This document shows positions 660 to 54,417 of a stretch of DNA of 64,000 nt, one piece after another; position 1 is the stretch's first letter; each line of letters begins with the position of its first letter. A program made the position numbers and the translations under genes. This stretch comes from Cyanidioschyzon merolae (Eukaryota): NCBI GenBank assembly GCA_000091205.1, contig AP006499.2; one strand, written 5' to 3'. Below the pieces are notes generated by a model. It was not told the origin of the DNA. It searched no databases and saw only the letters and a program-made list of their open reading frames with translations.

Positions 660-3347
660 ATGGACTGGAGACGGACGCTGCGACTCTCAACCTTGACACG
701 AACGCTGCAGAAGCGGCTATCGCTCCGCGGGGCTACCGCCCGGCTGGCCGCGTGCTCAACTGCTGGACCGCTGTCTTCCGTTAGCCTCGACGCTGAGGCC
801 TGGGCGAAACACATTCAACATCAAACGGGGGTCGCTGTGCGCTGCGGCTTCGGTCTGGACTTTGAAACAGGACGGCTGGCTCGACTCGCCACGGGATCGG
901 TCACCGTTCACGCTGGCAGTACGCAAGTCCTCGTGGCGTGCGTTTTGGCCGCACATCGAGCACCAGCAAGCTTCGCCCAGCTCGATGCCCTGTTGCAACA
1001 GCAGCACACTGCGGGGCGGCTCTCGGAGTGGCAACGGACACAGGAGCTTTTGCAGACGTTGCATACGGCACCGTTGTGGGTGGATGTGCGCGAGCGTGCT
1101 TCCGCTCGAGGCCTTATTCCGACCTCCTATCATCGACGAGAAAGTGCTGCAACCGAAAAAGAGGTGATTACAGCTCGCCTCATCGATCGTGCACTACGCC
1201 CGACGCTGCCGCGAGGTTATTGTATAGAAACGCAACTCACTGCCGAAGTGCTCAGTGCCGACGGCCAACTGGACCCCGATACCCTGGCTCTGAATGGCGC
1301 CGCTATCGCGCTTCTCTTGGCCTTTCAGCGCTGCTTTCCGCAGCAGGTCATGCAGGCACAGACTCGACCACGCCTGGTAGCAGCAGTCCGTATCGCTCGA
1401 TTAGCTCAGACGAGCACCGCAGCGGACACGGTCGCTTTTCCTCCGTCCGAGTCGGCATCGATGACGCCTGCTCGCCCTCGCTGGATCATTCAGCCGAGCT
1501 ATGCGGAGCGACTGGCTAGTGACCTCGATTTGGTCTTTGCCGGCACCAGCGATGGCTGTTGTGTCGCACTTGAGGGCGAGGCGAAAGCCGTGCCTCCCGA
1601 AGATATTGCTGAAGCTTGCCGCCTGGCAAGCGCCGCGCTAGAACCCCTGCGACAGCAACAGGAAGCCCTGCTCCAGCAATGTCGACTGGCAGCGTCGATG
1701 CCAGGGGCAGGTGCTGGACCACCTGCCCTCTTCTGGGCGATGCCGCGTCCACAAGTCGTTGCCGAGGCGTTGCGCCACAGCGGCGAGCGTCTGGTATCGA
1801 TCTATGCACATGCTCCGGAAAAGACTGAGCGGGGTATCGCCGTCGCTCAGGAGAGCGCCCAAGCAGTCGCACACCTGCGCCAGCACGCGGCGTCTTTGCG
1901 GTCTGCACCTGCCACAGACGCATCGAGTGTATCGCCTGGTGTCGATGCTGTTGGCCCTGCCGAGGCTGCGCTGGCGGTGCTGGAGGCTTCGCGGGAGGCC
2001 TGGCGACAGGCCCTGCAGCGCCACCAGCACCGTGTCGACGGCAGGCTGCCACGTGAAATGCGTCCCATGGAGGCTCGCGTGCAAGTCCTGCCGTCCGATA
2101 CCTGCCATGGTTCAGCGCTCGTGAGCCGAGGCGAGACGCAGGTGCTCGCTGTAGCGACGCTGGGCTTCCCGTCGCTGGCAAAGCGCCTCGATGCCTACGG
2201 CGGCGGTGCCGACACCAAGCAGTTCTATGTTCATTACCAGTTTCCACCTTACTGCAACAATCAACTGGGTCGTGGGGATGCACTCTACCGGCGTCGTCGC
2301 CGCGAGGTCGGTCACGGTATCCTGGCCGAGCGTGCCGTGCGCTCAGTGCTACCCAGTGACCTCTGGCATGCGGTGCGTCTCGAGGCGGATGTGCTGGCCT
2401 CGGCTGGCTCCAGCTCCATGGCTGCTGCAGCGGCTGGCTCTCTGGCACTCATGGACGCTGGATTACCGCTCGCGGGTCCTGTCGCTGGGGTCAGTATTGG
2501 TGGGATTCTCGCCACCACGTCTGCGGGCTCGAGCGCAACGACGGAAGCGTACCTGCGGTCGCCATTCGCACAGGATGCAGAGCCCTGCGCGGACCTCTTC
2601 CTCGTGGACATACTCGGATTGGAGGACTTTTTCGGCGATTTTGACTGCAAGGTCGCGGGGACAGAGCAGGGGATCACCGCTTTGCAACTGGACGTGAAAC
2701 ATCAAGGTCTCACCTTGGAGCAAGTGGCGCGAGCCCTGGAAGAGGCTCACCGTGTCCACCATGTCCAGCTGGAGAAAGTCCTGCGTGTTGCGCTGCCCGC
2801 TGGAGCAGCGCGTCCTTTCCTGCCGCCCCAGGCACCGCGACGTGGCAGCTGGAATCTGTCTCTGGCGGATCGGGGACGTCTGCTGGGTGCTGGAGGTCAA
2901 CGTGTGCGGGAGCTCGAGCAGCACACCGGTTGCAGTATACAGCTGGAAGACGACGGAAGCATTTCCTTGTGGGCGCCGAACGCGCAAGTTCTGGAGCAGG
3001 CTCTCGAGATTCTGCAGCAGGTAACGCGCATTCCAGCCTGCGGAGACTCGTTCCATGGTCGAGTACTGCAAATCCTGGACTTTGGGGCTGTTATCGAGAT
3101 TCAGCCCAGTCCGAGTTCGTTCCGATTACAGGGCCTTTTGCATCGGTCGGCATTTGCGTCGGCCTTGGAATGGACCAGGGTTCAGGTTGGAGACGCTTTA
3201 GTGGTGCGGGTAACCCAAGTGGACCCACGGACCGGTTCTCTGCGGTTCGCCCAGGTTGCCCCCATGGATGGTAATGGTGTTCCGAACGGCACCAGTACGC
3301 TCGATGAGCGTCGCGATGCAGCATCTTCGGAAATGCCCCGCAACTAG
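660..3347 (+). CDS. Polyribonucleotide nucleotidyltransferase (PNPase), organellar type, with an N-terminal presequence
   Basis: 895 aa single ORF. Two RNase PH-like core domains (ETGRLARLATGSVTVHAGSTQVLVA; GGGADTKQFYVHYQFPPYCNNQLGRGD ... RRREVGHG) are followed by KH-like (GQRVRELEQHTGCSIQLEDDGSISLW) and S1-like (FHGRVLQILDFGAVIEIQP ... VGDALVVRVTQVDPRTGSLR) domains. The N-terminus is Ser/Arg/Leu-rich like a transit peptide. Confidence 0.88.
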   Translation: MDWRRTLRLSTLTRTLQKRLSLRGATARLAACSTAGPLSSVSLDAEAWAKHIQHQTGVAVRCGFGLDFETGRLARLATGSVTVHAGSTQVLVACVLAAHRAPASFAQLDALLQQQHTAGRLSEWQRTQELLQTLHTAPLWVDVRERASARGLIPTSYHRRESAATEKEVITARLIDRALRPTLPRGYCIETQLTAEVLSADGQLDPDTLALNGAAIALLLAFQRCFPQQVMQAQTRPRLVAAVRIARLAQTSTAADTVAFPPSESASMTPARPRWIIQPSYAERLASDLDLVFAGTSDGCCVALEGEAKAVPPEDIAEACRLASAALEPLRQQQEALLQQCRLAASMPGAGAGPPALFWAMPRPQVVAEALRHSGERLVSIYAHAPEKTERGIAVAQESAQAVAHLRQHAASLRSAPATDASSVSPGVDAVGPAEAALAVLEASREAWRQALQRHQHRVDGRLPREMRPMEARVQVLPSDTCHGSALVSRGETQVLAVATLGFPSLAKRLDAYGGGADTKQFYVHYQFPPYCNNQLGRGDALYRRRRREVGHGILAERAVRSVLPSDLWHAVRLEADVLASAGSSSMAAAAAGSLALMDAGLPLAGPVAGVSIGGILATTSAGSSATTEAYLRSPFAQDAEPCADLFLVDILGLEDFFGDFDCKVAGTEQGITALQLDVKHQGLTLEQVARALEEAHRVHHVQLEKVLRVALPAGAARPFLPPQAPRRGSWNLSLADRGRLLGAGGQRVRELEQHTGCSIQLEDDGSISLWAPNAQVLEQALEILQQVTRIPACGDSFHGRVLQILDFGAVIEIQPSPSSFRLQGLLHRSAFASALEWTRVQVGDALVVRVTQVDPRTGSLRFAQVAPMDGNGVPNGTSTLDERRDAASSEMPRN

Positions 3348-4258: not shown

Positions 4259-4357
4259 ACCAGAGAGAGAGAGAGAGAGAGAGAGGAACCCCCGCCCTCG
4301 CCCTCGCCCTCGCCCTCGCCCTCGCCTTCGCCCTCGCCTTCGCCCTCGCCCTCGCCC
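4259..4357. repeat. Compound microsatellite: (GA)n followed by (GCCCTC/GCCTTC)n hexamer repeats
   Basis: gagagagagagagagagagagagag followed by about 11 ccctcg/ccttcg units. It lies just 3' of the minus-strand eIF4B-like gene, probably in its 3' UTR. Confidence 0.9.
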
Positions 4358-4488: not shown

Positions 4489-4663
4489 TCAGGGCGTGTT
4501 TGCATTCGGGGAGGTCTCCGTCGCCGGTGGAGGCGGTACCCCTCGCCGTACCTGCGACCAGTCCACCTGGGTATCTTTCCCGAAGAAAGACTTGGCACCC
4601 TGACTAGACGGTGCCTTGCGAGGCGCTCGTTCGGAGGCAGGCACTGCACCAGCGTCAGCGTCA

Positions 4664-4696
<33 letters not shown>

Positions 4697-5937
4697 GGCG
4701 ATGGTACGCCTCGTCTGGAAAACTCCACTGCGGATGAATCCCCTGCCGCTGCAGCCATGCCTGCAAAAGGTCTCCGCCGGTGCCTCGACGAGGTGTCGTT
4801 ACTCGCCGAGGCCTTCACAGCGGACGGAGGCAGCCGTCCTCTGCGACTAAAGTCTAACGTTGTCGGCTCCGTGGAGGCGCCCTGCTTCGCCGCGTGCGTC
4901 GTGCTACTCGCTGGCGGCGGGTTCATGTGCGACGGCAGCTCTTGCGGTCGTCCTGGACGGGCGTCACGAGCACTGGGCTCCGTTCGAGTGTCTGCTGGAG
5001 CATCTGCAGGAAGTGTTGCCTCGGAACGCGTGCCCTCCGAGGCTGCCGGTGGCAGTCGACCACGCTTCCCAAAGTCGACCTCCACATCCGAGGGGATGAA
5101 CCCCCTAGAGGGCTGAGGTTCTGATGCTGACGCCTTTGCCTCTGCCGCAGGTGGCAACATGCCACGTTTGCGGAAATCAACGTCTACGTCCTCGACAGGC
5201 GACACCTGCGCACGAGTCGTTACCGCAGGCGGGAGTAGTCCGCGGCGTTCCAACGTTCCTTCGGCTGAGTCTGTCACCAACTGACCGAACATTTCTCGCC
5301 TCCTTTCGGGTTGGCGGCCACCAAAACTACCCAGACCTTTTTCGGCTGTCTCTAGTGCCGCGGGAGGCGCCAGGCCTCGCCGGGTAAAGTCCGGCTCTGG
5401 TGCCGCTTCGGCTTCAAGCGCCGGACCTGCTCCGTTCAAGCCAGCGGCCGCTGCTGGAGCGGGAAACCCCCGCGAGTGATCCGCATTTCGCAGCCAGTCG
5501 CGACCGCCTGCGTCTCCAACTGGGCCTCGAGGCGTCAGACCTCGTCGAGCTGCGCTCCAGTCCAGTTCGGGTTCAGCGTCGGCACCGCGGTTACCAGCAC
5601 CAAACGCTCGATCGGAAGCAGCACCGGCACCCGCGAATCCACTGTCGTCATCGTCGGCCCAGTCACAGGGTGCTTCACCGAAAGCCGATCGCATTCGAGC
5701 TCCGGGACCGCCGAAACGCTCCCAGCGGTCTCCGTAACCTCCGAACGACCCACCATAACGAGCTCCGAACCCTCGTTCGTCATCGGGTCCCCGACTCCGC
5801 GGCGCAGTCGGTAGCACGGCGAGTTCGGGATCCGCCGCTACAATGGGCCCCGACCCGGGCTGCTGACCACTGCCAGCAACAAACTCGCTGAGACTAACGG
5901 TCACCTTGTTCGACTTGCTGCTCTTTTTCTTGCCCAT
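4489..5937 (-). CDS. eIF4B-like translation initiation factor (plant-type, no RRM) with tandem DF-x-RRG-x-LPP-AA repeats
   Basis: The N-terminus MGKKKSSKSNKVTVSLSEFV ... LAVLPTAPRSRGPDDE matches the eIF4B/eIF4H N-terminal box (lysine run, T(I/V)SL(T/S)(D/E)F, SILPTAPRA). It is followed by a Gly/Tyr/Arg DRYG-like segment (RGFGARYGGSFGGYGDRWERFGG). There are about six copies of the (D/E)F(S/T/G)(R/K)RG(L/M/R)(L/A)PP(A/S)A motif, a poly-Ala tract encoded by (CTG)n at 4664-4696, and a Lys-rich start. No RRM motifs were seen. Confidence 0.6.
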
Positions 5938-8707: not shown

Positions 8708-10759
8708 TCACTTGCCACTCCGCAGATGCGATCGGCCCGGACCCTTCCGCTCGTTTGAAGCTATTTTGAAGCCGAATGCGTTCATGGGGCCAGGCACTCG
8801 GAACAGCATCCGCAGCAGCTTAGGCTGTGACTGGGCCATGGAGCGCGCCCAAGCGCGAAAAGCCGTAATGTCGTCCTCTCCGCGGCGTGTAATCCACAGA
8901 CGGAGTTGATCCGCCCGAACAGCATTGTTCTTTGCCAGAGTATTCAGCAAGGTCTGATCGTGCTTCAGTCGCTCATAGAACCAGCTCAAAAGTCGTCTAT
9001 ATGGTTCGTTCGCTGCCTCCCGCGATTTCAGAGTCCCGCATTGCATTGAACCTGGCCGCTGAAACGCCGGCGGGTCCTGAGGTTGTTGCCCCAGCGACTC
9101 GTTCCCCGGTTTCACGCTCTTTTCGTCACAGGAACACGTGCTTATATCCTCGTCCGTGCGTGTGAACAGGTGCAACATAGAGAGGGCTTCGATCGCCTCT
9201 CCGAGGCGCGAGGCTTCGCCGAGCTGGATATCCGCAAAGCCAACATCCCGCGTTTCCATTTCCGCCCAGTCGCGGACGACGAGCTCATCGAGCTTCGTGC
9301 ACCGGGCAAAATACTCGCGAGCCAGTTCGTAGTTGCCGCAGTGGCGTTCAAGCGAGGCCATCGCGTGACAGAGATGACGATCACCGGGCGCAATTTCCAG
9401 ACCCTTCTGAAAGAGCATCCGCGCTTTGTCCAGTCTACCTTGGCGCCATTCCAGTTTCCCGAGCAAGTTGTACGCTGCTGGGGCGGTATGCGGGGACCCA
9501 TTCGACACTTCAATTGCTCGTTCGAAGAGCACGCGTGCCTCGTCAATGCGTCCGCGCTGCTGTTCGAGCATACCCCATGCGTGCAACGTTCGGGCATGAT
9601 TTGGATTCAAGGCAACTGCTCTTTCATAGCAGCAAATTGCTTCATCGTAGCGATGCTCGCGTTGCTCGAGGACACCCCAGGTTTGGTAAAGGCAGGCAAG
9701 CTCCTTGCACGTGGGATTGATTTGCTCTACAGAAGCAACACCCAGTTTGAAAAGCTCTCGGGCGCGCGTCACGCCCAAGCCCAGACTCGCTTCGAAGCGC
9801 ACCCAAGCTTGCCATGTAATCGGATCCCGCCCGTTCACTGCACGGGCGCTCAGCTCGAATAGTCGACGGACGAGCCTTGCTCCGGCACAATTGCTGGGCC
9901 GACGGCTCGAATCGGTCTCTGGACGCTTCTCGTTTTTGTGGAGCGGTACGAGTTTTTTGCTCACGGATGACATACTGCGTCGAAGCTCCTGTTGCTCGAG
10001 GAAACGCACTTCAGCAAGCGCCCAGGCATGGTAAAGCTTGCTAGCAGAGCACCATCGTCCAGCCTCTGCGTCCTTCTCGTTCCAGCCTTCAATATCGGGA
10101 ACAAATTCGGTTCCGATATAGTCTGCGAACGTATGCACCGGCACCGTACCGTTCTCGTCGACGGTGGATTCATTCCATACACCGCCCGCACGAATCAGGC
10201 CCCGTCGAAACACCGCCCGAGCCCGCGCTACGCCGTGCAGACGATGGAACACGCTTGACGCCCAAGTCAGGTCGTCTACCGCAGAGAGTTCCAGCTCTGC
10301 GGTTCCGTCGCGTCGCATGATATCTCCGCCAACAAGTCCGTTCTTCTCGTCGTCCGTGTATATTGTTGGCTCTGCTAGCGCCGCCTCAGCTTCACACTGA
10401 CCGAAACCAACCCATATGCGAGCATCGAAAGGGTGTTGCCAAACGAGCTCTTCGAACAGCTGCCGTGCTGCCTCAAACCGTCGTGTTTCTACATAATAAA
10501 AGGCCGTCCCGAACGTGCGCGGTGCCGGGTACACACAACTCGAGTTACGCCAGAGCCTTGGGCACCTAACTTCGTCCGCGACCTCTTCGCTAACTGTTAG
10601 GGTCGCGACTGCTGAAAACCTCCCGGGAGGCCGTCTAGAGATACCACTGCCTCGCCGCCACGCTCCCGTGCTGAACGCTTTGGGCGTACAGCGCGACACG
10701 GCAGTTACAGAGCAAAACCCCAAGTTTTTCTCTCCTATTATCCCATGAAAACTCGACAT
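8708..10759 (-). CDS. HAT/TPR-like repeat protein with an N-terminal presequence (HCF107/Mbb1-like organellar RNA-maturation factor candidate)
   Basis: 683 aa. It contains several half-a-TPR style repeats with W/Y..W...E spacing (YHAWALAEVRFLEQ; WQAWVRFEASLG; YQTWGVLEQREHRYDEAICCYERAVALNPN; LHAWGMLEQQRGRIDEARVLFERAIE; YNLLGKLEWRQGRLDKARMLFQKGLEIAP; HAMASLERHCGNYELAREYFARC). The N-terminus is Ser/Arg-rich. The specific ortholog assignment is an inference. Confidence 0.55.
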   Translation of the reverse strand: MSSFHGIIGEKNLGFCSVTAVSRCTPKAFSTGAWRRGSGISRRPPGRFSAVATLTVSEEVADEVRCPRLWRNSSCVYPAPRTFGTAFYYVETRRFEAARQLFEELVWQHPFDARIWVGFGQCEAEAALAEPTIYTDDEKNGLVGGDIMRRDGTAELELSAVDDLTWASSVFHRLHGVARARAVFRRGLIRAGGVWNESTVDENGTVPVHTFADYIGTEFVPDIEGWNEKDAEAGRWCSASKLYHAWALAEVRFLEQQELRRSMSSVSKKLVPLHKNEKRPETDSSRRPSNCAGARLVRRLFELSARAVNGRDPITWQAWVRFEASLGLGVTRARELFKLGVASVEQINPTCKELACLYQTWGVLEQREHRYDEAICCYERAVALNPNHARTLHAWGMLEQQRGRIDEARVLFERAIEVSNGSPHTAPAAYNLLGKLEWRQGRLDKARMLFQKGLEIAPGDRHLCHAMASLERHCGNYELAREYFARCTKLDELVVRDWAEMETRDVGFADIQLGEASRLGEAIEALSMLHLFTRTDEDISTCSCDEKSVKPGNESLGQQPQDPPAFQRPGSMQCGTLKSREAANEPYRRLLSWFYERLKHDQTLLNTLAKNNAVRADQLRLWITRRGEDDITAFRAWARSMAQSQPKLLRMLFRVPGPMNAFGFKIASNERKGPGRSHLRSGK

Positions 10760-13996: not shown

Positions 13997-14929
13997 TTAC
14001 AGCGGCGGTCGAGCTGGGTGCACTCGTGCACGCCTCGCATAGGAGGAGGCGGTTTGCACGCTACCATCTGCGGGTACCTGTTCTTCTTGTGGCTCCTTGT
14101 GCAGCGTTGATGCGATCAGCCCGAATGGTTTGATTTCTACGGCGACTTCGTCACCTTTTGGCATCTGGAACATGCGATAGAAGCCCCGCATGACGCCCAA
14201 AGGTGCCGCCAACACGCACTGACTCCGATACTCGTAGCTGTCACCGACTTGGAGGGTCGGCGTCTGGCCGACCACCCCGAGACCCCGCACCGTCTGTAGC
14301 TGACCCTCTAGGTCATTGATATCCCAGTGGCGTCCGAGGAGCAGCACGGGTGCAGGACCATGGTTCTCTATCCGTACAAAATACGTGAAATGGTACATAT
14401 CACGTAGACCATCCAGACCAACGCCACGTTGCTCGCGACCGAGAAACAACGAATCCACCTGAACCCGCACGCCTGCCGTCAAACAACTCGAGTGCGGTTC
14501 ATAGACTAAGCGCTTCAGCGCGACAACGCGCGATTGTAGCACTCTGAGCAATCCGAACCCAAGCTCCAGTTCTCTTTCACTCGGCTGCTGCTCTGTGAAG
14601 CTTCTTTCACGCACGGAGCGACGCAGCGCTGCAGCGAGCTGCCACGGGTCTCGCGGCGCCTTCCCGGGCACCACTCGTGCGAGTTCATTTAATGCGGGAC
14701 CCAGTGTTCCACAGAATATGCTCCATTCGCGGGCGTGGAACGCTGACGGGAGCACGCTCCTGCTGCTTTCTACTCGCGTCCACTCGCGAGCATAGTCGCG
14801 CAGCGAACGCTGCAAGGCTCTGTACAAAACGCTGGCCGTAGAACGCCTCGGGGAAGCGTTCCAAGTCGAACTTGCACTGTACGGGTGAGAGGGACAGCGA
14901 ATGCGCCCTGTGAGCAGCCGACTAGCCAT
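13997..14929 (-). CDS. ApaG (DUF525) domain protein with an N-terminal extension of about 150 aa
   Basis: The C-terminal 120 aa match the ApaG fold signature: YHFTYFVRIENHGPAPVLLLGRHWDINDLEGQLQTVRGLGVVGQTPTLQVGDSYEYRSQCVLAAPLGVMRGFYRMFQMPKGDEVAVEIKPFGL. The N-terminus is Arg/Ser-rich, like a presequence. Confidence 0.7.
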   Translation of the reverse strand: MASRLLTGRIRCPSHPYSASSTWNASPRRSTASVLYRALQRSLRDYAREWTRVESSRSVLPSAFHAREWSIFCGTLGPALNELARVVPGKAPRDPWQLAAALRRSVRERSFTEQQPSERELELGFGLLRVLQSRVVALKRLVYEPHSSCLTAGVRVQVDSLFLGREQRGVGLDGLRDMYHFTYFVRIENHGPAPVLLLGRHWDINDLEGQLQTVRGLGVVGQTPTLQVGDSYEYRSQCVLAAPLGVMRGFYRMFQMPKGDEVAVEIKPFGLIASTLHKEPQEEQVPADGSVQTASSYARRARVHPARPPL

Positions 14930-17009: not shown

Positions 17010-20000
17010 GTGTTCCGGCGTCCTTCGAGACGCACTGCGCCTCCGAAGCCGCAGGTCGGACGCCTTTCCCGAAAAGCGTTCTTGTACGGCTCCATGATCG
17101 AGGCGACTGCCGTAGAGGTAGATCGTGAAGGGAATCATGGTCAGCGTAACCGGTGGCACCGCGTTCCAAAGCGCAGACGTCAAGCAGTTCCCGCTGCAGC
17201 GTTGAAGGAAAACGCCCAGCGCCGACAGGAGACCGCCGCGAAACGTGGCCTAGAGAGGCACGCCGAACGAGAGCGATATTTTGCCATTCTTGGATCACAG
17301 ATGCTTTCAAGCTCATTACGGGACCAGTTACTACCTTCGCAAGCACTTAGTGGACACAAACGACGACGCGCCGGTCCCGAGGTGGCTTCGCACCCGCACC
17401 CGCCTGAGCGAACGGAGGCCGAACGCGCGCCGACGCCCACGGCGACAGCTCCGAAGCACTTGTCGCAGGCACCGGTTCAGAAGCGATTTCGGTCGCGTCA
17501 GCACCAGACCCCGGCAGCCTTGGCGGCACGTATTGGCAGCGATCCAGAGCCTGGTACAGACACCCCGCCCGAGTGCTCAAAAGCAAATGCTCGTACGAGC
17601 GTTGTGGTGCGGTGTGAAAGTGGTCACCCAGTTTCTATGCCGGAACCCAAAGATACACAGAATCTCTGTGAAATGCCGTCACATGCCCATTCAGATGTCA
17701 TGGTGGACCGCACGGACGCTACACTGAATACACTGGCGGGTATTGCAGTGTGTAGCCCGTCGTCGGCGCTGTCCATCGACACGCGTCTTCAAACGTCTTG
17801 CGAAACAACACGCCGCGCGAGTAATGTATCATCATCATCATCATCATCGTTGATGCTAGCTCCATCCATAACAGACGTAGACAATGGGCGGACCACTGCA
17901 GAACAGACAAGTACTGGGAAACTGTCGCTCGCCTTGGTATCGCTTCCGAATCAAGGCGCATACTGTCAGCACCTGTACCAGCATCGGCAGGAAATGCTAG
18001 CCCCTGTACATCATGAAGACGACGATGGGTACGCCGCGGTGGTGCCGGTTGCCCACGGATTACCTGCTGCCGCGTACCGGCGGGATTCTGTCGCGGCGCC
18101 TGCACCTCGCTCCTTCTATGTGACACTGGAACGGACAGCAGACATCCAGACACGTCGAGCGTCTCTGCCCGTATTCGAATTGGAGCAGGAATTCATGGAG
18201 ATGGTCCGCGATCGCGATGTTGTCATCGTGGTCGGCCCAACAGGCTCTGGGAAAACAACCCAGATACCGCAGTTTCTTTACGAGGCTGGGTACGGGCATC
18301 CCGACGAGCGGCGCCGACCCGGTGGTTCAGTTGCAATTGTCCAGCCACGACGTCTGGCAGCAGTCTGGTGTGCAGAGCGCGTTGCCTCAGAGCTAGGAAC
18401 AGAAATTTTACGACAAACGCGAGAAGACGAGACGGGCGGCGTGAGGCAACCTGTCCAACTCGGCGTCCAGGTAGGATATCATGTTCGCCACGATCGAAAA
18501 GTCCATGACGAGCACACCCGGCTTGTTTTCGTTACCGACGGTATTTTGCTCCAACAGCTAGCGGAGGACATTGCTCTTCGACACTTTGGATGCGTTGTTC
18601 TCGACGAAGTACACGAAAGGAGCATCCAAATGGATTTGCTCCTGGGACTTCTCAGTCGAACGGTTCGCCTGCGACGTTCACCCGCCTGGCAATCAGCGTA
18701 TCCAAATATCGGACCTCTCAAGCTAATTATCATGTCTGCGACGGTTGATGCAGAATCCCTGGCGCGGCATCCTAGACTCTTTACGAGCGCGACATCAGCG
18801 ATGCTTGCGAAACTGCCCAGTGGTAGCGTACCGGAAATGCCGAGGTCGCCTGCGACACGCTCGGAGGCATTGCGGGTGTCATCATGCGCAATCAGCGATG
18901 TGCCTTCGGTATCGAGCGAGGCGACTCTGTGCTGCTTCGCGAAAGCTTCGGATGCGGGTGTGTCTTCACCTGATGCTGAGGCTCATCTGCTGCCAGCCGT
19001 CGCTCCACAGCATGCAGGCAGCGATGCGCTGGATACGCGTCATACGCAACCGGCGAGTGTTGCGGCACTGCAGGCACTACGCGCTGCAGCAGAAGCTGAT
19101 GCAGCCATAGCGGCAGGACGTTCCGCGGGCGACAAACCAGAAGCCGGCGCTGCTTCAGCGCCAGCAGTGCTGGTTGTTCCTGGACGTCAGTATCCTGTCA
19201 CCATCCACTTTGCTCGACAGACGCATCGTGACTACATCGCTGCTGCCTGCGAGAAATGTCTCAAAATTCACCAACGCTTACCTGCGGGCCATATTCTGGT
19301 GTTCCTCCCGGGTCGCCGGGCCATCGCACAGCTCTGTGCTTCCTTGCGAAAGGCGTGCCGAGGCACCTGCGAACGCCCACTTCATGTCAAACCTTTATAC
19401 GCGGGAATCTCCCGGGTCGCCCAGGAGGCGCTCGAGCACGCCGTTCACGGAACGGAGCGGGTGTGCATCGTCGCAACGAATGTTGCTGAAAGCGCCATCA
19501 CGATTCCCAACGTTCGCTACGTCGTAGACAGCGGACTCGTGCGGCGAGTCATGACCCATGCGTACAACAGCGAGGGCGTCTCGCTGCACCAAGTCACCTG
19601 GACAAGTCAAGCCTCTGCGCAACAGCGAGCTGGCAGAGCCGGACGCACCGCTCCCGGGCACTGTTATCGCCTCTATTCTGTCGCAACATTTGTGAACCTC
19701 TTTCCGGCAACGGATACTCCCGAAATCCAACGCATGCCGTTGGAATCGGTGCTGCTGTTTCTGAGCCGCCTCGGCATACGCCATCCATTGCGCTTTCCCT
19801 GGGTAACGACACCAGGAGCAGCCGCGCTGCGCAAAGCGCACTGGGTTCTCCGGGTGCTCGGAGCCGTCCAGGACGAGCGTGCTTCTCGCCACGTGACCAG
19901 TCCGTCGGTTGAAGAGCGCGCCTTGGCGGCACCGAGCGCTGCACCAGATGACCTGTCGCTGGAAGCGCCTACACCACTGGGGATCGCCATGGCCCGCGTA

Positions 20001-21617
20001 CCGGTATCGGCTCGGCTGGCAAGATTGCTTTTCTGGGTGCGTGACCACAGTCCAGACGCTATTCGGTACGGGATCCGCCTTGTTGCCCTTTTGAGTGTAC
20101 GTGAAATCATGAGCAGCGGCAGCGGCAGCGGCAGCGGCACGTTACCACTTGCGAACAAGGACTCATCAGAGAGTGCATCTGGGGGCCGTTATGCTTTTCG
20201 CCGAGCGCTCTATCATCCACAGAGCGAGCTGCTTACCAAACTTCGGTTCCTGGGTGCTGCTGAATACGCTTGGCGAGCGGAAGGCGGCTTCCGTGCACTC
20301 ACTCGATTTTGTGCATTGTACGGTCTGCAGGAATCCACTGTTCGAGAAGCGCTCCTCATCGTGCAACAGTTGGAGCGGCGCGCAGACCGCTTCCTGGGCA
20401 AGCAGTGCTTGGATGATCTCGCTCCTAATGGAACAGCAGAAACTCGACCAGAGGGATCCGAAACAGACGGTTGCAAGCGTCCGCAGGATGTGCGAGATCT
20501 CGCTGCAGGGTGCTTTTGTGGCAGCGAGCCGGACCCCATGATCGACGATGACGATACGGAAACAGAGGCGGACAACGACAACGACGACGGGATCCCGTTC
20601 CAGGATCCCAGTGTCCACGTATCCAAGGGGCAACGACGAGGTTTCGTTTGCCGCTGGGGCGATGAACCGCTGCGGCCTCCATCACCAGAACAGGAGCAGA
20701 CGCTTTGTCGTGCCCTGCTGGCGGCCTTCCCGGACCAGGTAGCGCGGCGAATGCATACAGAGGAGGCCAAGGATTGGCGGCAACAGCACTCTGGAGTGCG
20801 TACGAATGGAGTCCTTTTCCGCTGCCCGGTCTGGGAAACAAAGGATTGCGAGTCGGTCGAGGGAGTCGTGGCGCGTGTGTCACCGTGCTGCCCGGTGGAT
20901 GTCTCTGGTGATGAAGTTCAGTACCTCCTGTATACCGAAGTAACGCTCGAGGAGCTGGAACCTTCACCGGACCCGGCCACAAAGTCTCCTGCTACTGTGG
21001 CAACCCTGCGAGGCTCGACGCGTATCGAACCCGCCTGGTTAACGACGCTGAATCATCCGTGCTTGGTACGCTATGGAGACGTCGTTGCGGAACCTGCTCC
21101 AAAGTATGATGCAGAAGCGGATCAGGTGATGGCCTGGGTGCGCTGTCTCTACGGTCGAGAGGCCTGGACCTTGCCCCTCTGCTGGATGCCGCTTCCAGCG
21201 TTTACACAGGACCCCTTGGACGGGCAGATAGAGGATCAGCGGGAGCGCAGGATCTGTATCTTCGCCAGGGCACTACTAGAGCGACAAGTGCTACCGCGTC
21301 TTCCTCCGCCGGCTATTCAGCATGCATTACAACCGTCACCTGCTGTGCTCACCTGGGGTCTCGAGCACGGCGAACGGTCTACATCTGGGGATCGCCACTG
21401 TAACTTGGGGTATAGGCGGCATCGGGCGGCCGTTCTCCTGGTGACAGCTCTCAAGCGGTACGACATCACGAGCCGGCAGGCGTTGTTTCGGCAGTGGCGA
21501 CGCGACCCCTTCTACCTCCGCTATGAGTTTCTCTTATGGGTGCCAGCCGCACATCAGGGCATGATCCAGCAGCAGTGGACAACACTTACACAGCAAGATG
21601 CAGGTTGTTCGGTCTGA
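17010..21617 (+). CDS. DHX37: DEAH-box ATP-dependent RNA helicase, DHX37/Dhr1-like, with a long N-terminal extension and low-complexity inserts
   Basis: 1535 aa. Motifs seen: GPTGSGKTTQIPQFLYEAGYG; VLDEVHERS, a DEVH variant of DEAH; LLGLLSRTVRLRR ... LKLIIMSATVDAESLARHPRLF; KIHQRLPAGHILVFLPGRRAIAQLCASLRKA; VCIVATNVAESAITIPNVRYVVDSGLVRRVMTHAYNSEGVSLHQVTWTSQASAQQRAGRAGRTAPGHCYRLYS. These align closely with DHX37 as I remember it. There are poly-Ser (TCA)n, SGSGSGSG and acidic DDDDTETEADNDNDD inserts. Confidence 0.85.
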   Translation: MFRRPSRRTAPPKPQVGRLSRKAFLYGSMIEATAVEVDREGNHGQRNRWHRVPKRRRQAVPAAALKENAQRRQETAAKRGLERHAERERYFAILGSQMLSSSLRDQLLPSQALSGHKRRRAGPEVASHPHPPERTEAERAPTPTATAPKHLSQAPVQKRFRSRQHQTPAALAARIGSDPEPGTDTPPECSKANARTSVVVRCESGHPVSMPEPKDTQNLCEMPSHAHSDVMVDRTDATLNTLAGIAVCSPSSALSIDTRLQTSCETTRRASNVSSSSSSSLMLAPSITDVDNGRTTAEQTSTGKLSLALVSLPNQGAYCQHLYQHRQEMLAPVHHEDDDGYAAVVPVAHGLPAAAYRRDSVAAPAPRSFYVTLERTADIQTRRASLPVFELEQEFMEMVRDRDVVIVVGPTGSGKTTQIPQFLYEAGYGHPDERRRPGGSVAIVQPRRLAAVWCAERVASELGTEILRQTREDETGGVRQPVQLGVQVGYHVRHDRKVHDEHTRLVFVTDGILLQQLAEDIALRHFGCVVLDEVHERSIQMDLLLGLLSRTVRLRRSPAWQSAYPNIGPLKLIIMSATVDAESLARHPRLFTSATSAMLAKLPSGSVPEMPRSPATRSEALRVSSCAISDVPSVSSEATLCCFAKASDAGVSSPDAEAHLLPAVAPQHAGSDALDTRHTQPASVAALQALRAAAEADAAIAAGRSAGDKPEAGAASAPAVLVVPGRQYPVTIHFARQTHRDYIAAACEKCLKIHQRLPAGHILVFLPGRRAIAQLCASLRKACRGTCERPLHVKPLYAGISRVAQEALEHAVHGTERVCIVATNVAESAITIPNVRYVVDSGLVRRVMTHAYNSEGVSLHQVTWTSQASAQQRAGRAGRTAPGHCYRLYSVATFVNLFPATDTPEIQRMPLESVLLFLSRLGIRHPLRFPWVTTPGAAALRKAHWVLRVLGAVQDERASRHVTSPSVEERALAAPSAAPDDLSLEAPTPLGIAMARVPVSARLARLLFWVRDHSPDAIRYGIRLVALLSVREIMSSGSGSGSGTLPLANKDSSESASGGRYAFRRALYHPQSELLTKLRFLGAAEYAWRAEGGFRALTRFCALYGLQESTVREALLIVQQLERRADRFLGKQCLDDLAPNGTAETRPEGSETDGCKRPQDVRDLAAGCFCGSEPDPMIDDDDTETEADNDNDDGIPFQDPSVHVSKGQRRGFVCRWGDEPLRPPSPEQEQTLCRALLAAFPDQVARRMHTEEAKDWRQQHSGVRTNGVLFRCPVWETKDCESVEGVVARVSPCCPVDVSGDEVQYLLYTEVTLEELEPSPDPATKSPATVATLRGSTRIEPAWLTTLNHPCLVRYGDVVAEPAPKYDAEADQVMAWVRCLYGREAWTLPLCWMPLPAFTQDPLDGQIEDQRERRICIFARALLERQVLPRLPPPAIQHALQPSPAVLTWGLEHGERSTSGDRHCNLGYRRHRAAVLLVTALKRYDITSRQALFRQWRRDPFYLRYEFLLWVPAAHQGMIQQQWTTLTQQDAGCSV

Positions 21618-41646: not shown

Positions 41647-44600
41647 ATGCAGAGTCCTGCGGAAGCATTGTCGCAGCAGCATGCACAAGGTTGGCACTTC
41701 ACGAGAGGACCTTTCGCCGTACTCGGCTTTGTCAACCTGTTTCCTGCGGGGGCTGGATCGAACTTTGCTACGAGAAACTTGCTACGGAAAGGTCGCTGCA
41801 GTAAACAGCAGCTGCGGGGAAAGCGCTGGTGCTGTGTGCGCGGCTTCCGAGTAGAGCGTCAGTCCCTGCAGGCTGCCGCCGAGGTGCCGACGCCTTACCG
41901 CTTCGCGCTGGGGCGAGCACCGGTCGAGCGAGCCAAGGCAGCGGGACCGATCTCGCAGCAGCATGCTCGATCAGAGGAAGAGTTGAACGAACTCGTAGCG
42001 AAGAGGTTCTTAGAACTGGTCCGCAGTGAGGGCACTGGGCCCGTTGGCGTTCCGGCTCAGCTGGTGAAGCCGGCTTGGCTCGAATGGAGCGACCGCATGG
42101 CCACCAGGCTGGCTGGTTTGGGGCAAGTCTGGCGCGTACTCTTCAGTGTGCTACTTGCAGCAACTATTGGGGCGGCTGCGGCCGGCGTAACGCCACCGGG
42201 ACGTCGACGCGCTGCGGGTTTCGCCGCGGGTGCGCTTCCAACTGCAGCGCTTGCCGTGGTGATGCTCCGGCGGGGACGCTCGATTGGTGCACCGCGAGCG
42301 CTCGCAAGCGCTCTTGTCGAGAGCACGGTTGCTGTATCGACGAAGAACATGCCGAGTGCGAGCGATGATCAGCGTCGCCGTGCAGACGACAATGGCGGCG
42401 AAGACACGGAAAGCGACGACAATGGAGCGACGTCCTCAAACGCGCCACCGCGACTGGGGCTTGCCTCACACATCGATCCGGAGATGATTCAGCGTGTGGC
42501 AATACAATACGGGATGCAGCCGGACGCTCCATCGTGGAAGCTGGAGACGCTTGTTGGTCTCTATGAACGATACCTACTGGCTTTGGTGCAGACGAGCGGC
42601 ACGCCGCGCGTCTCCGAAGTTCGCCAGTTGAAAGCACTGCGCTCCGCGTTTGGTCTGAGTCATGTCGATGTCGGTGACGCGCATCATCAAGTAGCGATGC
42701 GTTTTCGTAGAGAAAATTTCGTCTATATTGACGACTATATTCGCGCACAAGACGTCGACGATCGGAACTATGATGAGATCTTCCGGGAACGCGCACAAGA
42801 TGTGAATCAGAAACTTTCCAAGCTACTCTTCCTATCTGCACGCGTGCTCGACGATCCAACTGAACCAGAGGAGGCTTACCGCTACGAAATGGCCCGCTTG
42901 CGCAACGTATTTGACTTGTCAGAATCAGAGTTTCAGGCGCGTGTTCGTGACATTGCCGTTCCTTTCTACCAGACCGCAGTGCGGAAGGCTGTATGGCTGC
43001 TTGAGCAAGGTCGGTCGATCACTTTAGAGAAATTGCGATCTGCTCGGGAAATGCTGGATGTTGACGATGGCACCGCTAGTCGTCTGCATCTGGAGGCGTA
43101 TGGAGCGCTCGTGCAGCGCCTCCTGCAAGCACATTCGAACGAGAAAGTCCCACGTCTATCCGCAAAAGACATGAGCGTGCTCCAGGAGGCAAGGAGGCTT
43201 TTGGATATCGATGCAGGCGATGCAGATGCGCTGCTCCGCGATGCCGCAGAGCCGCTCTATCAGCAAGAGGTGGAGCGCGTCGTTGAGTCTGCAGATCTTC
43301 GCATTCCTACGGCACATGGGCGCCTAGCGGTGCGTCGGGAAGAGCTGGGGCTCAGCGTAGAGCTCGCACGCACAGCGGCAGAGAAGTGGATTCGCGGGCG
43401 TGTTACCGCTATCCTGAAGGATGCCACACGAGCGCTCCGCGTTCAGAACCTTACCATGACGATTGAAGAACTGAATCGCCTGCTGGGGCTTATCCGCAGA
43501 AGCTTGAGCATCATTCATGGCGTCGTCTGGGAAGAGGTCGTTCCGAATTCGGCCGAGCAACGCACCGTGAACGCGTCACTGGAGCGTATCATGAGTGTGC
43601 TCCTTGATGAGCTCGCGGACCTAGAGCGCCAGCAGCTCTATCGAGTGTACCTGGCAAAATGTCTTGAGGACCGCATGATTGACGCACAAGAAGGACGCAA
43701 CCTCGATGATCTTCGCGCCGTTCTGCGTATTTCTGAAAACGAAGCTGCCCAAGCGTACAACCGTGCTGCTGGTCCCGTCTACCGGGAAGCTGTGCTCGAG
43801 GTCATGGCAAATCGAAGCGAGTTTACGGACGCGGATATCCAGAGCCTGAACCAAATAGCAGGCGACCTGCATATACCGGCCAAGGTTGCCCACGATATTC
43901 GTATGGAGCTGTATCGAGAGCGTCTTGAAGCGAGCACCCGCGATAATCGGGTACCATCGGAGGAAGAGTCCAGTCAGCTGGCGCGTTTGCGAGAGCTGCT
44001 CCAGTTGGATTCGGAGGCGCTCGCGGCACTGCACGCCAGCGTCTGCGCAGGCACCTATGCGCAGTCAGTCGACGAGTGCATGGGCTCGAACGGCATCATC
44101 CCGGAGCCGTATCGCGCCGGGCTGGAGCGTCTGCGACAACGGCTCTGCCTTGATGAACGACGTGCCCGAGAGCTCTTCCTGCAGGTAGCTCGTCGACGAA
44201 TGGCGGGCTATGTACAGCGCGCGATCAAGCTCCTCCAGAAGAAACAGTCGTTTCGGGGTCAGGATGAAGAGCGCGATGTCGGTGACGATCCCTTCGTGCG
44301 ACGAGCGGGCGCTTTTCTGGGCATCGAGGCGGGTACCATCACCATTGAGCTGAGTAACTTGATCGATTTCTACATCCGCAATGGAATCCTAGAGATGGAG
44401 AATGAACAGGCTGTGTACCCGGTGAACCTCCGGGGTGTCTTCGATCTGAACATTCTTCAGGAGATGTATCGACAATACCTCATCCAGTCCTTCGCAGCGA
44501 AAAGTCGCACAGAAAAGGAGCGCCTCTTTAACAACCTCGCACATTTGGGGAACATCCTGGGCCTTACTTCAGCCGAGGTCAATGCCATTCATTCGAATAT

Positions 44601-45303
44601 CGGCTCCGTAATCTACAAAACCTATGCATCACAGGCGCTGACGAATAATCGGCTCGAGGAGAAGGATATCGAGTTTCTGCGGAATATTCAAAACATGCTC
44701 AGCATGGACGAGGCAACGTGCAGGACGCTGCTCCAAGAGACAAAGGAGGCGCGCGCAGGCTTCCTCTTTGACAAGATCTTCTCTCGCACATTTGGGATGG
44801 CGGAAGCGGTGGCAGAGTTTCGACGCGTGTGTCGCGAGCTTGACGTTGATCCTGTGCGGGACCTGAAACTCACCGAGGATCGTCGTGTTCGAGCTTTTCG
44901 GGCAGAGATAGAGCACGCCATTGAGAACGGACTCATTACGCCTGAGAACCAAAGTCTGCTGAAGGAGTCTCAAGAAGAACTGGGGATTTCAGCGGAAAAA
45001 GCTCGACAGGTTTTGCTCGACTGCATCCAGGATCGCTGCGAGGCGCTCATCGTGCAGGCGGCAGCGTCTCTGCGTCAACGTCGTCAAGAGGGCGCAGCGC
45101 GAGACTTGAGCCGAGCGCTGCGCTTTGGCAAGTTGCTTCCGTTCCAGGTGCAGACGCCCACGGTGACGGGTGCAGAGCGCCAAGAGCTCTACCTGGTGTA
45201 CCAGGCGTATGCGCTGGGCACCGCCCGCTCTAATGCCGAGAACGATCAGGTGAAAGAGGATCTCGCGCTGCTGCGAGAGATGTTGGGAATCCAAGCCGCC
45301 TAA
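41647..45303 (+). CDS. TIC110: Tic110-like protein (chloroplast inner-envelope translocon scaffold)
   Basis: 1218 aa. An N-terminal presequence is followed by two predicted TM helices (WRVLFSVLLAATIGAAAAGV; AAGFAAGALPTAALAVVML). A large domain then follows, built from at least 12 helical repeats that each begin with an L..LR..L(G/D)L(S/D)..EA-type motif (LKALRSAFGLSHVD; LARLRNVFDLSESE; LQEARRLLDIDAGDA; LARLRELLQLDSEA; LERLRQRLCLDERRA; LAHLGNILGLTSAEV; LRNIQNMLSMDEAT; LKESQEELGISAEKA; LALLREMLGIQAA). This is the architecture I recall for Tic110. Confidence 0.65.
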   Translation: MQSPAEALSQQHAQGWHFTRGPFAVLGFVNLFPAGAGSNFATRNLLRKGRCSKQQLRGKRWCCVRGFRVERQSLQAAAEVPTPYRFALGRAPVERAKAAGPISQQHARSEEELNELVAKRFLELVRSEGTGPVGVPAQLVKPAWLEWSDRMATRLAGLGQVWRVLFSVLLAATIGAAAAGVTPPGRRRAAGFAAGALPTAALAVVMLRRGRSIGAPRALASALVESTVAVSTKNMPSASDDQRRRADDNGGEDTESDDNGATSSNAPPRLGLASHIDPEMIQRVAIQYGMQPDAPSWKLETLVGLYERYLLALVQTSGTPRVSEVRQLKALRSAFGLSHVDVGDAHHQVAMRFRRENFVYIDDYIRAQDVDDRNYDEIFRERAQDVNQKLSKLLFLSARVLDDPTEPEEAYRYEMARLRNVFDLSESEFQARVRDIAVPFYQTAVRKAVWLLEQGRSITLEKLRSAREMLDVDDGTASRLHLEAYGALVQRLLQAHSNEKVPRLSAKDMSVLQEARRLLDIDAGDADALLRDAAEPLYQQEVERVVESADLRIPTAHGRLAVRREELGLSVELARTAAEKWIRGRVTAILKDATRALRVQNLTMTIEELNRLLGLIRRSLSIIHGVVWEEVVPNSAEQRTVNASLERIMSVLLDELADLERQQLYRVYLAKCLEDRMIDAQEGRNLDDLRAVLRISENEAAQAYNRAAGPVYREAVLEVMANRSEFTDADIQSLNQIAGDLHIPAKVAHDIRMELYRERLEASTRDNRVPSEEESSQLARLRELLQLDSEALAALHASVCAGTYAQSVDECMGSNGIIPEPYRAGLERLRQRLCLDERRARELFLQVARRRMAGYVQRAIKLLQKKQSFRGQDEERDVGDDPFVRRAGAFLGIEAGTITIELSNLIDFYIRNGILEMENEQAVYPVNLRGVFDLNILQEMYRQYLIQSFAAKSRTEKERLFNNLAHLGNILGLTSAEVNAIHSNIGSVIYKTYASQALTNNRLEEKDIEFLRNIQNMLSMDEATCRTLLQETKEARAGFLFDKIFSRTFGMAEAVAEFRRVCRELDVDPVRDLKLTEDRRVRAFRAEIEHAIENGLITPENQSLLKESQEELGISAEKARQVLLDCIQDRCEALIVQAAASLRQRRQEGAARDLSRALRFGKLLPFQVQTPTVTGAERQELYLVYQAYALGTARSNAENDQVKEDLALLREMLGIQAA

Positions 45304-54059: not shown

Positions 54060-54073
54060 GCCTTTGTAGGCAG

Positions 54074-54113
<40 letters not shown>

Positions 54114-54417
54114 TATGGGAATCGAAGCGGTAGTTTCTGGTCTTGCATGGATTCGGAGACGGGGTTGCGGTGCCAAGCGGACCATCCTGGGGGCATCGTT
54201 GACGCCCTCGTCGCTGAAGCAGCTCATATTCTGCCTTTTAGCGGTATCGTGGTAATTGTTCTGGCAGATAAAGGTCTTGCTGATGCCACAGGTACGGAAG
54301 GCAGAGCCCGGATACGCTCTTTGATGCGCTCAGAAGAAAAGTGCTGGCGTTGAGGCAGGCTAGCAGGTTTTCATCTGACCAGCAGCGCGCAGGGGCGGAA
54401 CACTAGCACCGGTAACC

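Follow-up and report, generated by a model that had tools for sequence, protein, structure and literature searches.

The DNA analysed in this study is a stretch of 64,000 nucleotides of contig AP006499.2 of the red alga Cyanidioschyzon merolae (hereafter the window), and the element of interest is an open reading frame (ORF) that runs from ATG to stop on its minus strand at positions 4489-5937. The translation of 482 amino acids (aa) is identical to protein CMQ325C of C. merolae 10D (BAM82190.1 / XP_005538226.1), which carries the database label 'hypothetical protein' and of which no mention was found in a literature search. Because of this identity, the window was read as nuclear DNA of a nearly intron-free red alga, a reading that fits its GC content of 55-60% and its long single-exon ORFs, which occur on either strand. 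The CMQ325C region itself has 63% GC and numerous overlapping ORFs on either strand. The protein is composed of 18% Ala, 11% Gly, 11% Pro and 10% Arg, contains 14 RG dipeptides, and has only two Tyr residues in its whole length. An initial annotation, made from the letters alone, had taken the product for a protein like the translation initiation factor eIF4B that lacks an RNA recognition motif (RRM) and is built around a novel repeat. Our sequence analyses suggested that CMQ325C is probably the eIF4B of the Cyanidiophyceae, a disordered protein lacking an RRM in which a plant-type N-terminal domain is followed by eight copies of a motif (Table 1).

The N-terminal region of CMQ325C is arranged in the order MGKKKSSKSNKVTVSLSEFV, LPTAPR, RYGGSFGGYGDRWERFGG and DWADDDD, and the Lys run and the VSLSEF and LPTAPR motifs that had been pointed out in the initial annotation are present as described. 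To compare this region with plant eIF4B, we used a reference set of real plant sequences, all of which contain PF06273, the Pfam family for plant-specific eIF-4B, and 16 of which were aligned. In BLASTP, aa 6-68 of CMQ325C matched aa 51-113 of Arabidopsis eIF4B1 with 38% identity (E 1e-5). Alignment with plant eIF4B in hhalign gave a probability of 89.8% (E 1.8e-6) for the full-length profiles and of 94.95% (E 4.1e-8, 73 columns) for the N-terminal profiles. The modules occurred collinearly in the red alga and in plants, comprising a basic box, (M/V)SLxEF, LPT(A/G)P(R/K) and R-GG-F-YG. A hidden Markov model (HMM) built from 120 plant eIF4B N-termini scored CMQ325C at 26.6 bits and its orthologues from Cyanidiococcus and from a third lineage (P0143) at 19.4 and 15.9 bits, respectively. 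These scores were reached by none of 2000 shuffles preserving local composition (maxima 7-12 bits), and the reversed sequence scored -9.5 bits. When the same HMM was run over the window, whose 806 open frames (50 aa or longer) served as decoys of real composition, CMQ325C was the sole match (27.3 bits, E 1.1e-7), and the next frame scored 5.7 bits. The results supported the view of the initial annotation that the protein is eIF4B-like.

Two smaller elements of the N-terminal region were also compared. What had been described as a DRYG-like segment is a Gly/aromatic/Arg stretch of about 20 aa which does align with the plant sequence 'RLGGGFSSYG' but is not a DRYG domain; no extended D/R/Y/G-rich region was found in CMQ325C, only this stretch of about 22 aa. 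The DWADDDD element recalls W-A-acidic motifs in other eIF4B N-terminal domains, namely SSWAEEDV in yeast and GAWAxEAE in plants, a likeness of pattern only, with differing positions. Human eIF4B and eIF4H presumably have an N-terminal KKGKTISLTDFL box and an LPTAPR motif as well, which we took as a lead only.

Downstream of the N-terminal region, the motif [acidic]-[DE]-[WF]-x(1-3)-[RK]-R-G-x-x-P-P recurs through the rest of the chain. The initial annotation had counted at least six evenly spaced copies; the repeat proved to be real, with eight copies, whose [RK]RG triplets lie at aa 131, 186, 231, 257, 291, 365, 408 and 464, and the distance between copies is uneven, from 26 to 74 aa. Two of the eight, the first (ELDWSAARRGLTP) and the last (VDWSQVRRGVPPPP), are of a W-type, D-W-x3-RRG. 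Five are of an F-type, [DE]-F-x-[RK]RG-x-x-P-P, and the remaining one has no aromatic residue. The F-type consensus is derived: it has a shortened spacer, has F in place of W, and carries an added invariant LPP(A)A tail, which is conserved to the same degree as the repeat core. In 20,000 composition-preserving shuffles, the pattern [RK]RG..P, observed seven times, appeared 0.075 times on average (maximum 3), and [DE][FW]x1-3[RK]RG, also observed seven times, appeared 0.013 times on average (maximum 2), which is far beyond a chance origin of the repeat. At the DNA level, the copies share only matches of about 20 nt with 73-83% identity, and they are therefore likely to be old and to have been maintained at the protein level.

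To obtain authentic yeast eIF4B repeats, metagenome contigs were searched with a degenerate DNA pattern for three D-W-x3-R-G units; a first metagenome scan with an approximate yeast Tif3 query had found nothing, and yeast repeat peptides were not found in the literature text searched. The pattern recovered three Saccharomycetes eIF4B genes (L102, L115 and L023), each encoding an N-terminal domain, an RRM and 6-7 copies of EEPxLDW(S/G)AARGS(N/G)(F/Y)Q. The protein of L102 (436 aa, L102:1352-2659, minus strand) is S. cerevisiae eIF4B (Tif3), and its identity as an eIF4B was confirmed by the top PDB match of its RRM, human eIF4B (4.5e-8). Most of what the pattern caught was unrelated and apparently bacterial, namely proteins with 'DWECxRGF' repeats that are organized as three to five tandem Cys-containing units of about 29 aa, 'NAxLDYxGxDWxCxRGFxRxGxxCxxV' (loci including L011, L012, L051, L070, L073, L091, L094 and L110 on metagenome contigs); with the HMM of red-algal repeats described below, no score of this family exceeded 2.4 bits.

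A repeat HMM was then built solely from 22 red-algal units, most of them F-type. The results showed that it matched L102, L115 and L023 with 28.8, 42.3 and 48.5 bits, respectively, and that within these proteins it found exactly the 6-7 internal repeats and nothing else. Shuffled controls had a mean of -4 bits, a standard deviation of 5 and a maximum of 10. Among 31 ORFs with at least three in-frame DW...RG units, three are the yeast genes, and all the others scored no higher than 2.4 bits; the likeness therefore sits in the flanks, that is, acidic-P-x-L before DW and AAR after it, and not in the search pattern. In the reverse test, an HMM of the yeast repeats matched EPELDWSAARRG in C. merolae with 12.5-13.1 bits and the Cyanidiococcus protein with 16.1 bits, scores that none of 1000 shuffles reached, and among the open frames of the window CMQ325C was its top match (E 0.003). 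Repeat 1 has 10 of 12 residues in common with the yeast repeats (EPELDWSAAR-G vs EPNLDWSAARG). These results suggested that the red-algal motif is most likely a derived form of the eIF4B internal-repeat core, EEPxLDW(S/G)AARG, of which yeast Tif3 has seven copies. The repeat, which had been thought novel and unlike known motifs, has a core (acidic-P-x-L-D-W-S/G-A-A-R-(R)-G) that matches the repeats of about 26 aa in yeast eIF4B/Tif3; judged by these profile matches, it is not novel in kind, and only the F-type consensus DFxRRGxLPPAA is lineage-specific.

Another candidate counterpart, the plant motif 'ADEVDNWxxKKxxP', was tried and rejected, as the red-algal HMM scored plant eIF4B at a median of -6 bits, the level of shuffled sequences, and the yeast-repeat HMM was blind to the motif too. 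An approximate human eIF4B sequence fell below noise with both repeat HMMs, including its repeat-core segment. Human eIF4B is described as having one segment homologous to the yeast repeat core just after its RRM (PMC8762332).

Orthologues were sought by a word-index search and by an exhaustive HMMER scan of 1.84 billion protein representatives, and relatives of CMQ325C were confined in both to the Cyanidiophyceae. The full-length orthologues are a protein of 483 aa with 44% identity in Cyanidiococcus yangmingshanensis and a protein of 473 aa (P0143) in a third lineage, which is represented in NCBI, JGI and Logan assemblies; an N-terminal gene-model fragment was found in Cyanidium caldarium (P0022). 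Each of these sequences begins with MGKKK and keeps the N-terminal box, whose loss in relatives had been named in the initial annotation as a sign of a chance match, and LPTAPR is invariant across the four Cyanidiophyceae sequences. In a three-way comparison, identity reaches 51% over the first 98 aa and 50% in the repeat windows, compared with 14% elsewhere, in the linkers; this is the pattern of short linear motifs under selection inside a drifting disordered chain. Individual copies turn over as well. At aa 324-341, C. merolae retains a degenerate remnant of a copy that reads DFGRRGVLPP or DFSRRGVLPP in the other two species, and in P0143 a different copy is degraded (AESRQHSRFAP, aligned columns about 305-320), which suggests that the copies are redundant.

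AlphaFold2 predicted no domain in CMQ325C (mean pLDDT, the per-residue confidence, 42.6; pTM, the confidence in the overall fold, 0.15). A PDB sequence search with a two-species profile returned noise only, with no eIF4B/eIF4H RRM chain matched, and a Pfam scan of the Cyanidiococcus and Cyanidium relatives gave no family. Together with the Pfam scan of CMQ325C itself, these results show that the protein has no RRM or other fold, in agreement with the initial annotation. The missing RRM is not unusual in Archaeplastida, as plant eIF4B has no detectable RRM either. Since, in addition, the RRM of the yeast factor is dispensable (PMC8762332), the RRM does not define eIF4B across eukaryotes.

We regard CMQ325C as a probable eIF4B because the N-terminus of plant eIF4B and the repeat core of fungal eIF4B co-occur in it, in the order, N-terminal domain followed by repeats, that it has in common with yeast eIF4B. 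Several results weigh against this assignment. The exhaustive HMMER scan returned only Cyanidiophyceae and a spurious bacterial repeat protein (P0021), with no eIF4B at E<=1e-3, and the Pfam scan of CMQ325C found no family even at E<=10, including RRM and PF06273. The confident hhalign columns confine the likeness to plant eIF4B to the N-terminal fifth of the protein, the plant C-terminal NPFGxAxPRE...GxDWxK modules were not found in it, and the plant ADEVDNWxxKK motifs did not rise above noise with either repeat HMM. On the yeast side, the N-terminal domains do not align significantly (hhalign E 0.012), the whole proteins are only weakly similar (hhalign 10%, E 0.003; BLASTP E 0.013), and the yeast-repeat HMM detected only the first W-type copy, leaving the five F-type copies unrecognised. 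Short motifs in disordered, compositionally biased sequence may also converge.

Some of these negative results can be calibrated within the eIF4B family. At the PF06273 gathering threshold of 28 bits, CMQ325C gave no match and Arabidopsis eIF4B1 scored 799 bits, and a homologue search with the N-terminal profile at E<=10 found only Cyanidiophyceae. L102 itself, despite its RRM, had no Pfam family at E<=0.01, RRM_1 included, and a missing Pfam match is therefore weak evidence within this family. Likewise, the N-termini of plant and yeast eIF4B did not align significantly with each other (hhalign E 0.014), so that the equally non-significant comparison of the red alga with yeast says little; by these alignments, the eIF4B lineages have little N-terminal sequence in common. 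No reciprocal best hit to eIF4B/eIF4H, the other check proposed in the initial annotation, was found in the PF06273, word-index and HMMER searches, which formally counts against the eIF4B assignment. Such a criterion is too strict for eIF4B because the plant and yeast N-termini miss each other in the same kind of comparison.

In the strongest alternative, CMQ325C has no relation to eIF4B and is a disordered protein specific to this lineage, such as an RNA-binding protein of the RG-motif type, an arginine methyltransferase substrate or a scaffold with proline-rich ligands, and its motifs resemble those of eIF4B by convergence or chance. It would account for the missing eIF4B link in the database-wide and Pfam searches, for the confinement of all likeness to short motifs of low-complexity sequence, for the abundance of RG dipeptides (14), and for an F-type consensus and an invariant LPP(A)A tail that have no counterpart in yeast or plant eIF4B. 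It would have to explain, on the other hand, how two independent eIF4B-specific features from two eIF4B lineages came together in one protein in the expected order, both passing shuffle, reversal and real-sequence controls, how Repeat 1 came to match the yeast repeats at 10 of 12 residues, and why control proteins with the triple DW...RG pattern stay at or below 2.4 bits. We therefore consider this explanation unlikely, though the most serious of the alternatives.

Less likely still, in our judgement, is that CMQ325C shares its ancestry with eIF4B but now serves another role, in which the F-type repeats would be a new binding module for another partner (PABP, eIF3, or a plastid- or stress-related factor) and the protein would act as an adaptor, not as a classical eIF4A/40S cofactor. 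The derived consensus of five of the eight copies (short spacer, F for W, LPP(A)A tail), their invisibility to the yeast HMM and a conservation of the tail equal to that of the core are in keeping with such a change. Against it, W-type and F-type copies form one family with a common RRGxxPP and acidic lead-in, and an HMM built mostly from F-type units still finds every yeast repeat. Nothing points to another partner: a regular-expression search found no PAM2 motif ([LFP][NS][PIVTAFL]xAxxFxP) in CMQ325C, even in the loose form xAxxFxP, and CMQ325C has no eIF4E-binding motif. That the frame is merely a chance ORF in GC-rich, repeat-containing DNA, as the many overlapping ORFs on both strands at 63% GC might suggest, is refuted by the full-length orthologues in Cyanidiococcus and P0143 and the Cyanidium fragment, all starting with MGKKK, by motif-specific conservation (about 50% vs 14% in linkers), and by the gene call in the reference annotation.

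On the assumption that CMQ325C is an eIF4B, a mode of action can be proposed for it, in which all biochemical activities and partners are carried over from the yeast factor. In yeast eIF4B, mRNA recruitment is driven by the N-terminal domain and the 7-repeats, which bind the 40S subunit (PMC8762332; bioRxiv 10.1101/2023.01.18.524494), and two of the seven repeats suffice according to a passage of the latter work that cites Zhou 2014. By analogy, the N-terminal domain and the multivalent repeats of CMQ325C would anchor the protein to the 40S subunit, close to the channel through which mRNA enters, and would bind single-stranded RNA, and the protein might promote the loading of mRNA onto the 43S complex that depends on eIF4A/eIF4F. 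Avidity could arise from several weak repeats that are partly redundant, and this would fit the gain and loss of single copies among the orthologues.

We also considered, tentatively, whether CMQ325C may have kept a near-ancestral eIF4B architecture, that is, a disordered chain of only an N-terminal domain and multiple DW-R-G repeats, with the F-type copies as a possible new binding module with its own partner. This is possible, though we do not think it the probable case. If it is true, eIF4B would be at least as old as the ancestor that Archaeplastida and opisthokonts share, and the RRM would be accessory, a domain that the animal-fungal lineage acquired or that Archaeplastida lost.

Table 1 Features of CMQ325C and neighbouring genes in the window
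Feature	Position	Strand	Remarks
Complete intronless coding sequence, 482 aa + stop	4489..5937	-	C. merolae 10D CMQ325C; candidate eIF4B
N-terminal domain, aa 1-98	5644..5937	-	Similar to plant eIF4B N-terminus; 51% three-way orthologue identity
Basic box + SLSEF motif, aa 3-20, KKKSSKSNKVTVSLSEFV	5878..5931	-	Aligns with plant KKKKMSLxEF
LPTAPR motif, aa 42-47	5797..5814	-	Aligns with plant LPTGP(K/R)
Gly/aromatic/Arg segment, aa 55-76, RGFGARYGGSFGGYGDRWERFG	5710..5775	-	Aligns with plant GRLGGGFSSYGRSG; not a DRYG domain
DWADDDD 'WA-acidic' motif, aa 92-98	5644..5664	-	Pattern comparison only, without statistics
Repeat 1, W-type, aa 122-136, EPELDWSAARRGLTP	5530..5574	-	Closest copy to yeast core EEPxLDWSAARG
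Repeat 2, F-type, aa 181-194, EPDFTRRGLAPPAA	5356..5397	-	
Conserved non-repeat box RRQxxxRR(E/D)MFxxL, aa 208-220	5278-5316	-	
Repeat 3, aa 227-238, GTLERRGLLPPA	5224..5259	-	Aromatic lost; orthologues LDFGRRG / LDFRRRG
Repeat 4, F-type, aa 252-265, DVDFRKRGMLPPAA	5143..5184	-	
Repeat 5, F-type, aa 286-299, EVDFGKRGRLPPAA	5041..5082	-	
Degenerate repeat remnant, aa 324-341, RDARPGRPQELPSHMNPP	4915..4968	-	Orthologue columns TDFGRRGVLPP / ADFSRRGVLPP
Repeat 6, F-type, aa 360-373, TLDFSRRGRLPPSA	4819..4860	-	
Repeat 7, F-type, aa 403-416, AVEFSRRGVPSPAA	4690..4731	-	
Poly-Ala tract, 11 residues, aa 415-425	4663..4695	-	(GCT)10.7 on + strand, 4664-4695
Conserved non-repeat box QG(A/S)KxFxGK(D/E)T, aa 445-457	4567-4605	-	
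Repeat 8, W-type, aa 458-471, VDWSQVRRGVPPPP	4525..4566	-	Directly after QG(A/S)KxFxGK(D/E)T box
PNPase-like protein, two RNase PH domains + KH	660-3347	+	Pfam
TPR protein	8708-10759	-	Pfam
ApaG-domain protein	13997-14929	-	Pfam
DEAH helicase with DHX37 C-terminal domain	17010-21617	+	Pfam
Tic110	41647-45303	+	Pfam
MMR_HSR1 GTPase	52284-54227	-	Pfam
FAD-linked oxidase	55379-57724	-	Pfam

Besides the repeats, two further boxes of CMQ325C are conserved (Table 1). The QG(A/S)KxFxGK(D/E)T box loosely recalls the plant NPFGxAKPRE...DW module, a kinship that was supported by no test. The poly-Ala tract, for which 12 residues had been given, has 11; its length seems to depend on the isolate or metagenome variant, as the members of the 90% cluster (P0001, P0005-P0016) have 476, 479, 480, 481 or 482 aa, and its counterparts in the other species are short, interrupted and not homopolymer runs. 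From this comparison, the (GCT)n tract is probably without function, a neutral microsatellite. Another microsatellite, with the hexanucleotide unit (CCCTCG)11.5 (92% match), lies at 4289-4357, downstream of the stop codon of CMQ325C by about 130 nt and presumably in its 3' untranslated or intergenic region; in the six-frame list it yields PSPSPS, RERERE and GEGEGE pseudo-ORFs.

At the opposite end of the window, the eIF4G-like gene mentioned in the initial annotation was recovered as an open frame at 60025-64000 (plus strand, more than 1325 aa) that continues past the right window end. Its product has a MIF4G domain at aa 970-1194 (E 1.2e-43), a YPREWLL motif of the eIF4E-binding type upstream of it and a poly-Gly run, and its low-complexity N-terminus is very long. 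The two eIF4G genes of C. merolae could not be classed as eIF4G or eIFiso4G in an earlier study (PMC3352336). The 54 kb between this gene and CMQ325C is without functional weight in a eukaryote. The ORFs at 45561-47366 (601 aa) and 61994-62764 (256 aa) had no Pfam match.

C. merolae has one of the smallest gene sets among free-living eukaryotes, and it has been used to define the minimal translation apparatus. A 2012 review described the alga as having no eIF4B. The assignment of CMQ325C to eIF4B appears to be new and to bear on a published evolutionary inference: a credible candidate would fill the reported gap and would undercut the inference that eIF4B arose later. The practical outcome would be the re-annotation of CMQ325C and its Cyanidiophyceae orthologues, with an incremental evolutionary insight and not a new mechanism. 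The alga is genetically tractable.

Compared with known systems, CMQ325C shares features with both fungal and plant eIF4B. Yeast eIF4B (Tif3/Stm1) consists of an N-terminal domain, an RRM, seven internal repeats of about 26 aa and a C-terminal domain. Like it, CMQ325C has a disordered N-terminal domain with a basic box followed by (M/V)xL(T/S)xF and a WA-acidic motif, dispersed acidic-P-x-L-D-W-(S/G)-A-A-R-G cores in a disordered region, and a copy number that is apparently flexible or redundant. Unlike it, CMQ325C has no RRM, its repeats are not tandem 26-mers and are separated by non-conserved linkers, they contain an extra Arg (RRG vs RG), and most of them are F-type with an LPP(A)A tail; its LPTAPR motif is absent from the yeast protein. 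Human eIF4B differs by its RRM, long DRYG domain and C-terminal arginine-rich RNA-binding region, and eIF4H is essentially an RRM protein. Plant eIF4B (PF06273; Arabidopsis eIF4B1/2, wheat eIF4B), also from Archaeplastida, resembles CMQ325C in having no detectable RRM and a largely low-complexity sequence, and in the collinear and significantly similar K-box, SLxEF, LPT(A/G)P(R/K) and R-GG-F-YG modules. Its N-terminal PWGxIGAWAxEAE, two ADEVDNWxxKKxxP motifs, two NPFGxAxPRE...GxDWxK modules and C-terminal region were not detected in CMQ325C, which has eight D[WF]-RRG-PP repeats instead. As a candidate eIF4B, CMQ325C would comprise just the two elements that are essential in yeast genetics, the N-terminal domain and the repeats, without an RRM, and, with an N-terminus of plant type and a repeat core of fungal type in a single chain, it would bridge eIF4B lineages that are otherwise unalignable.

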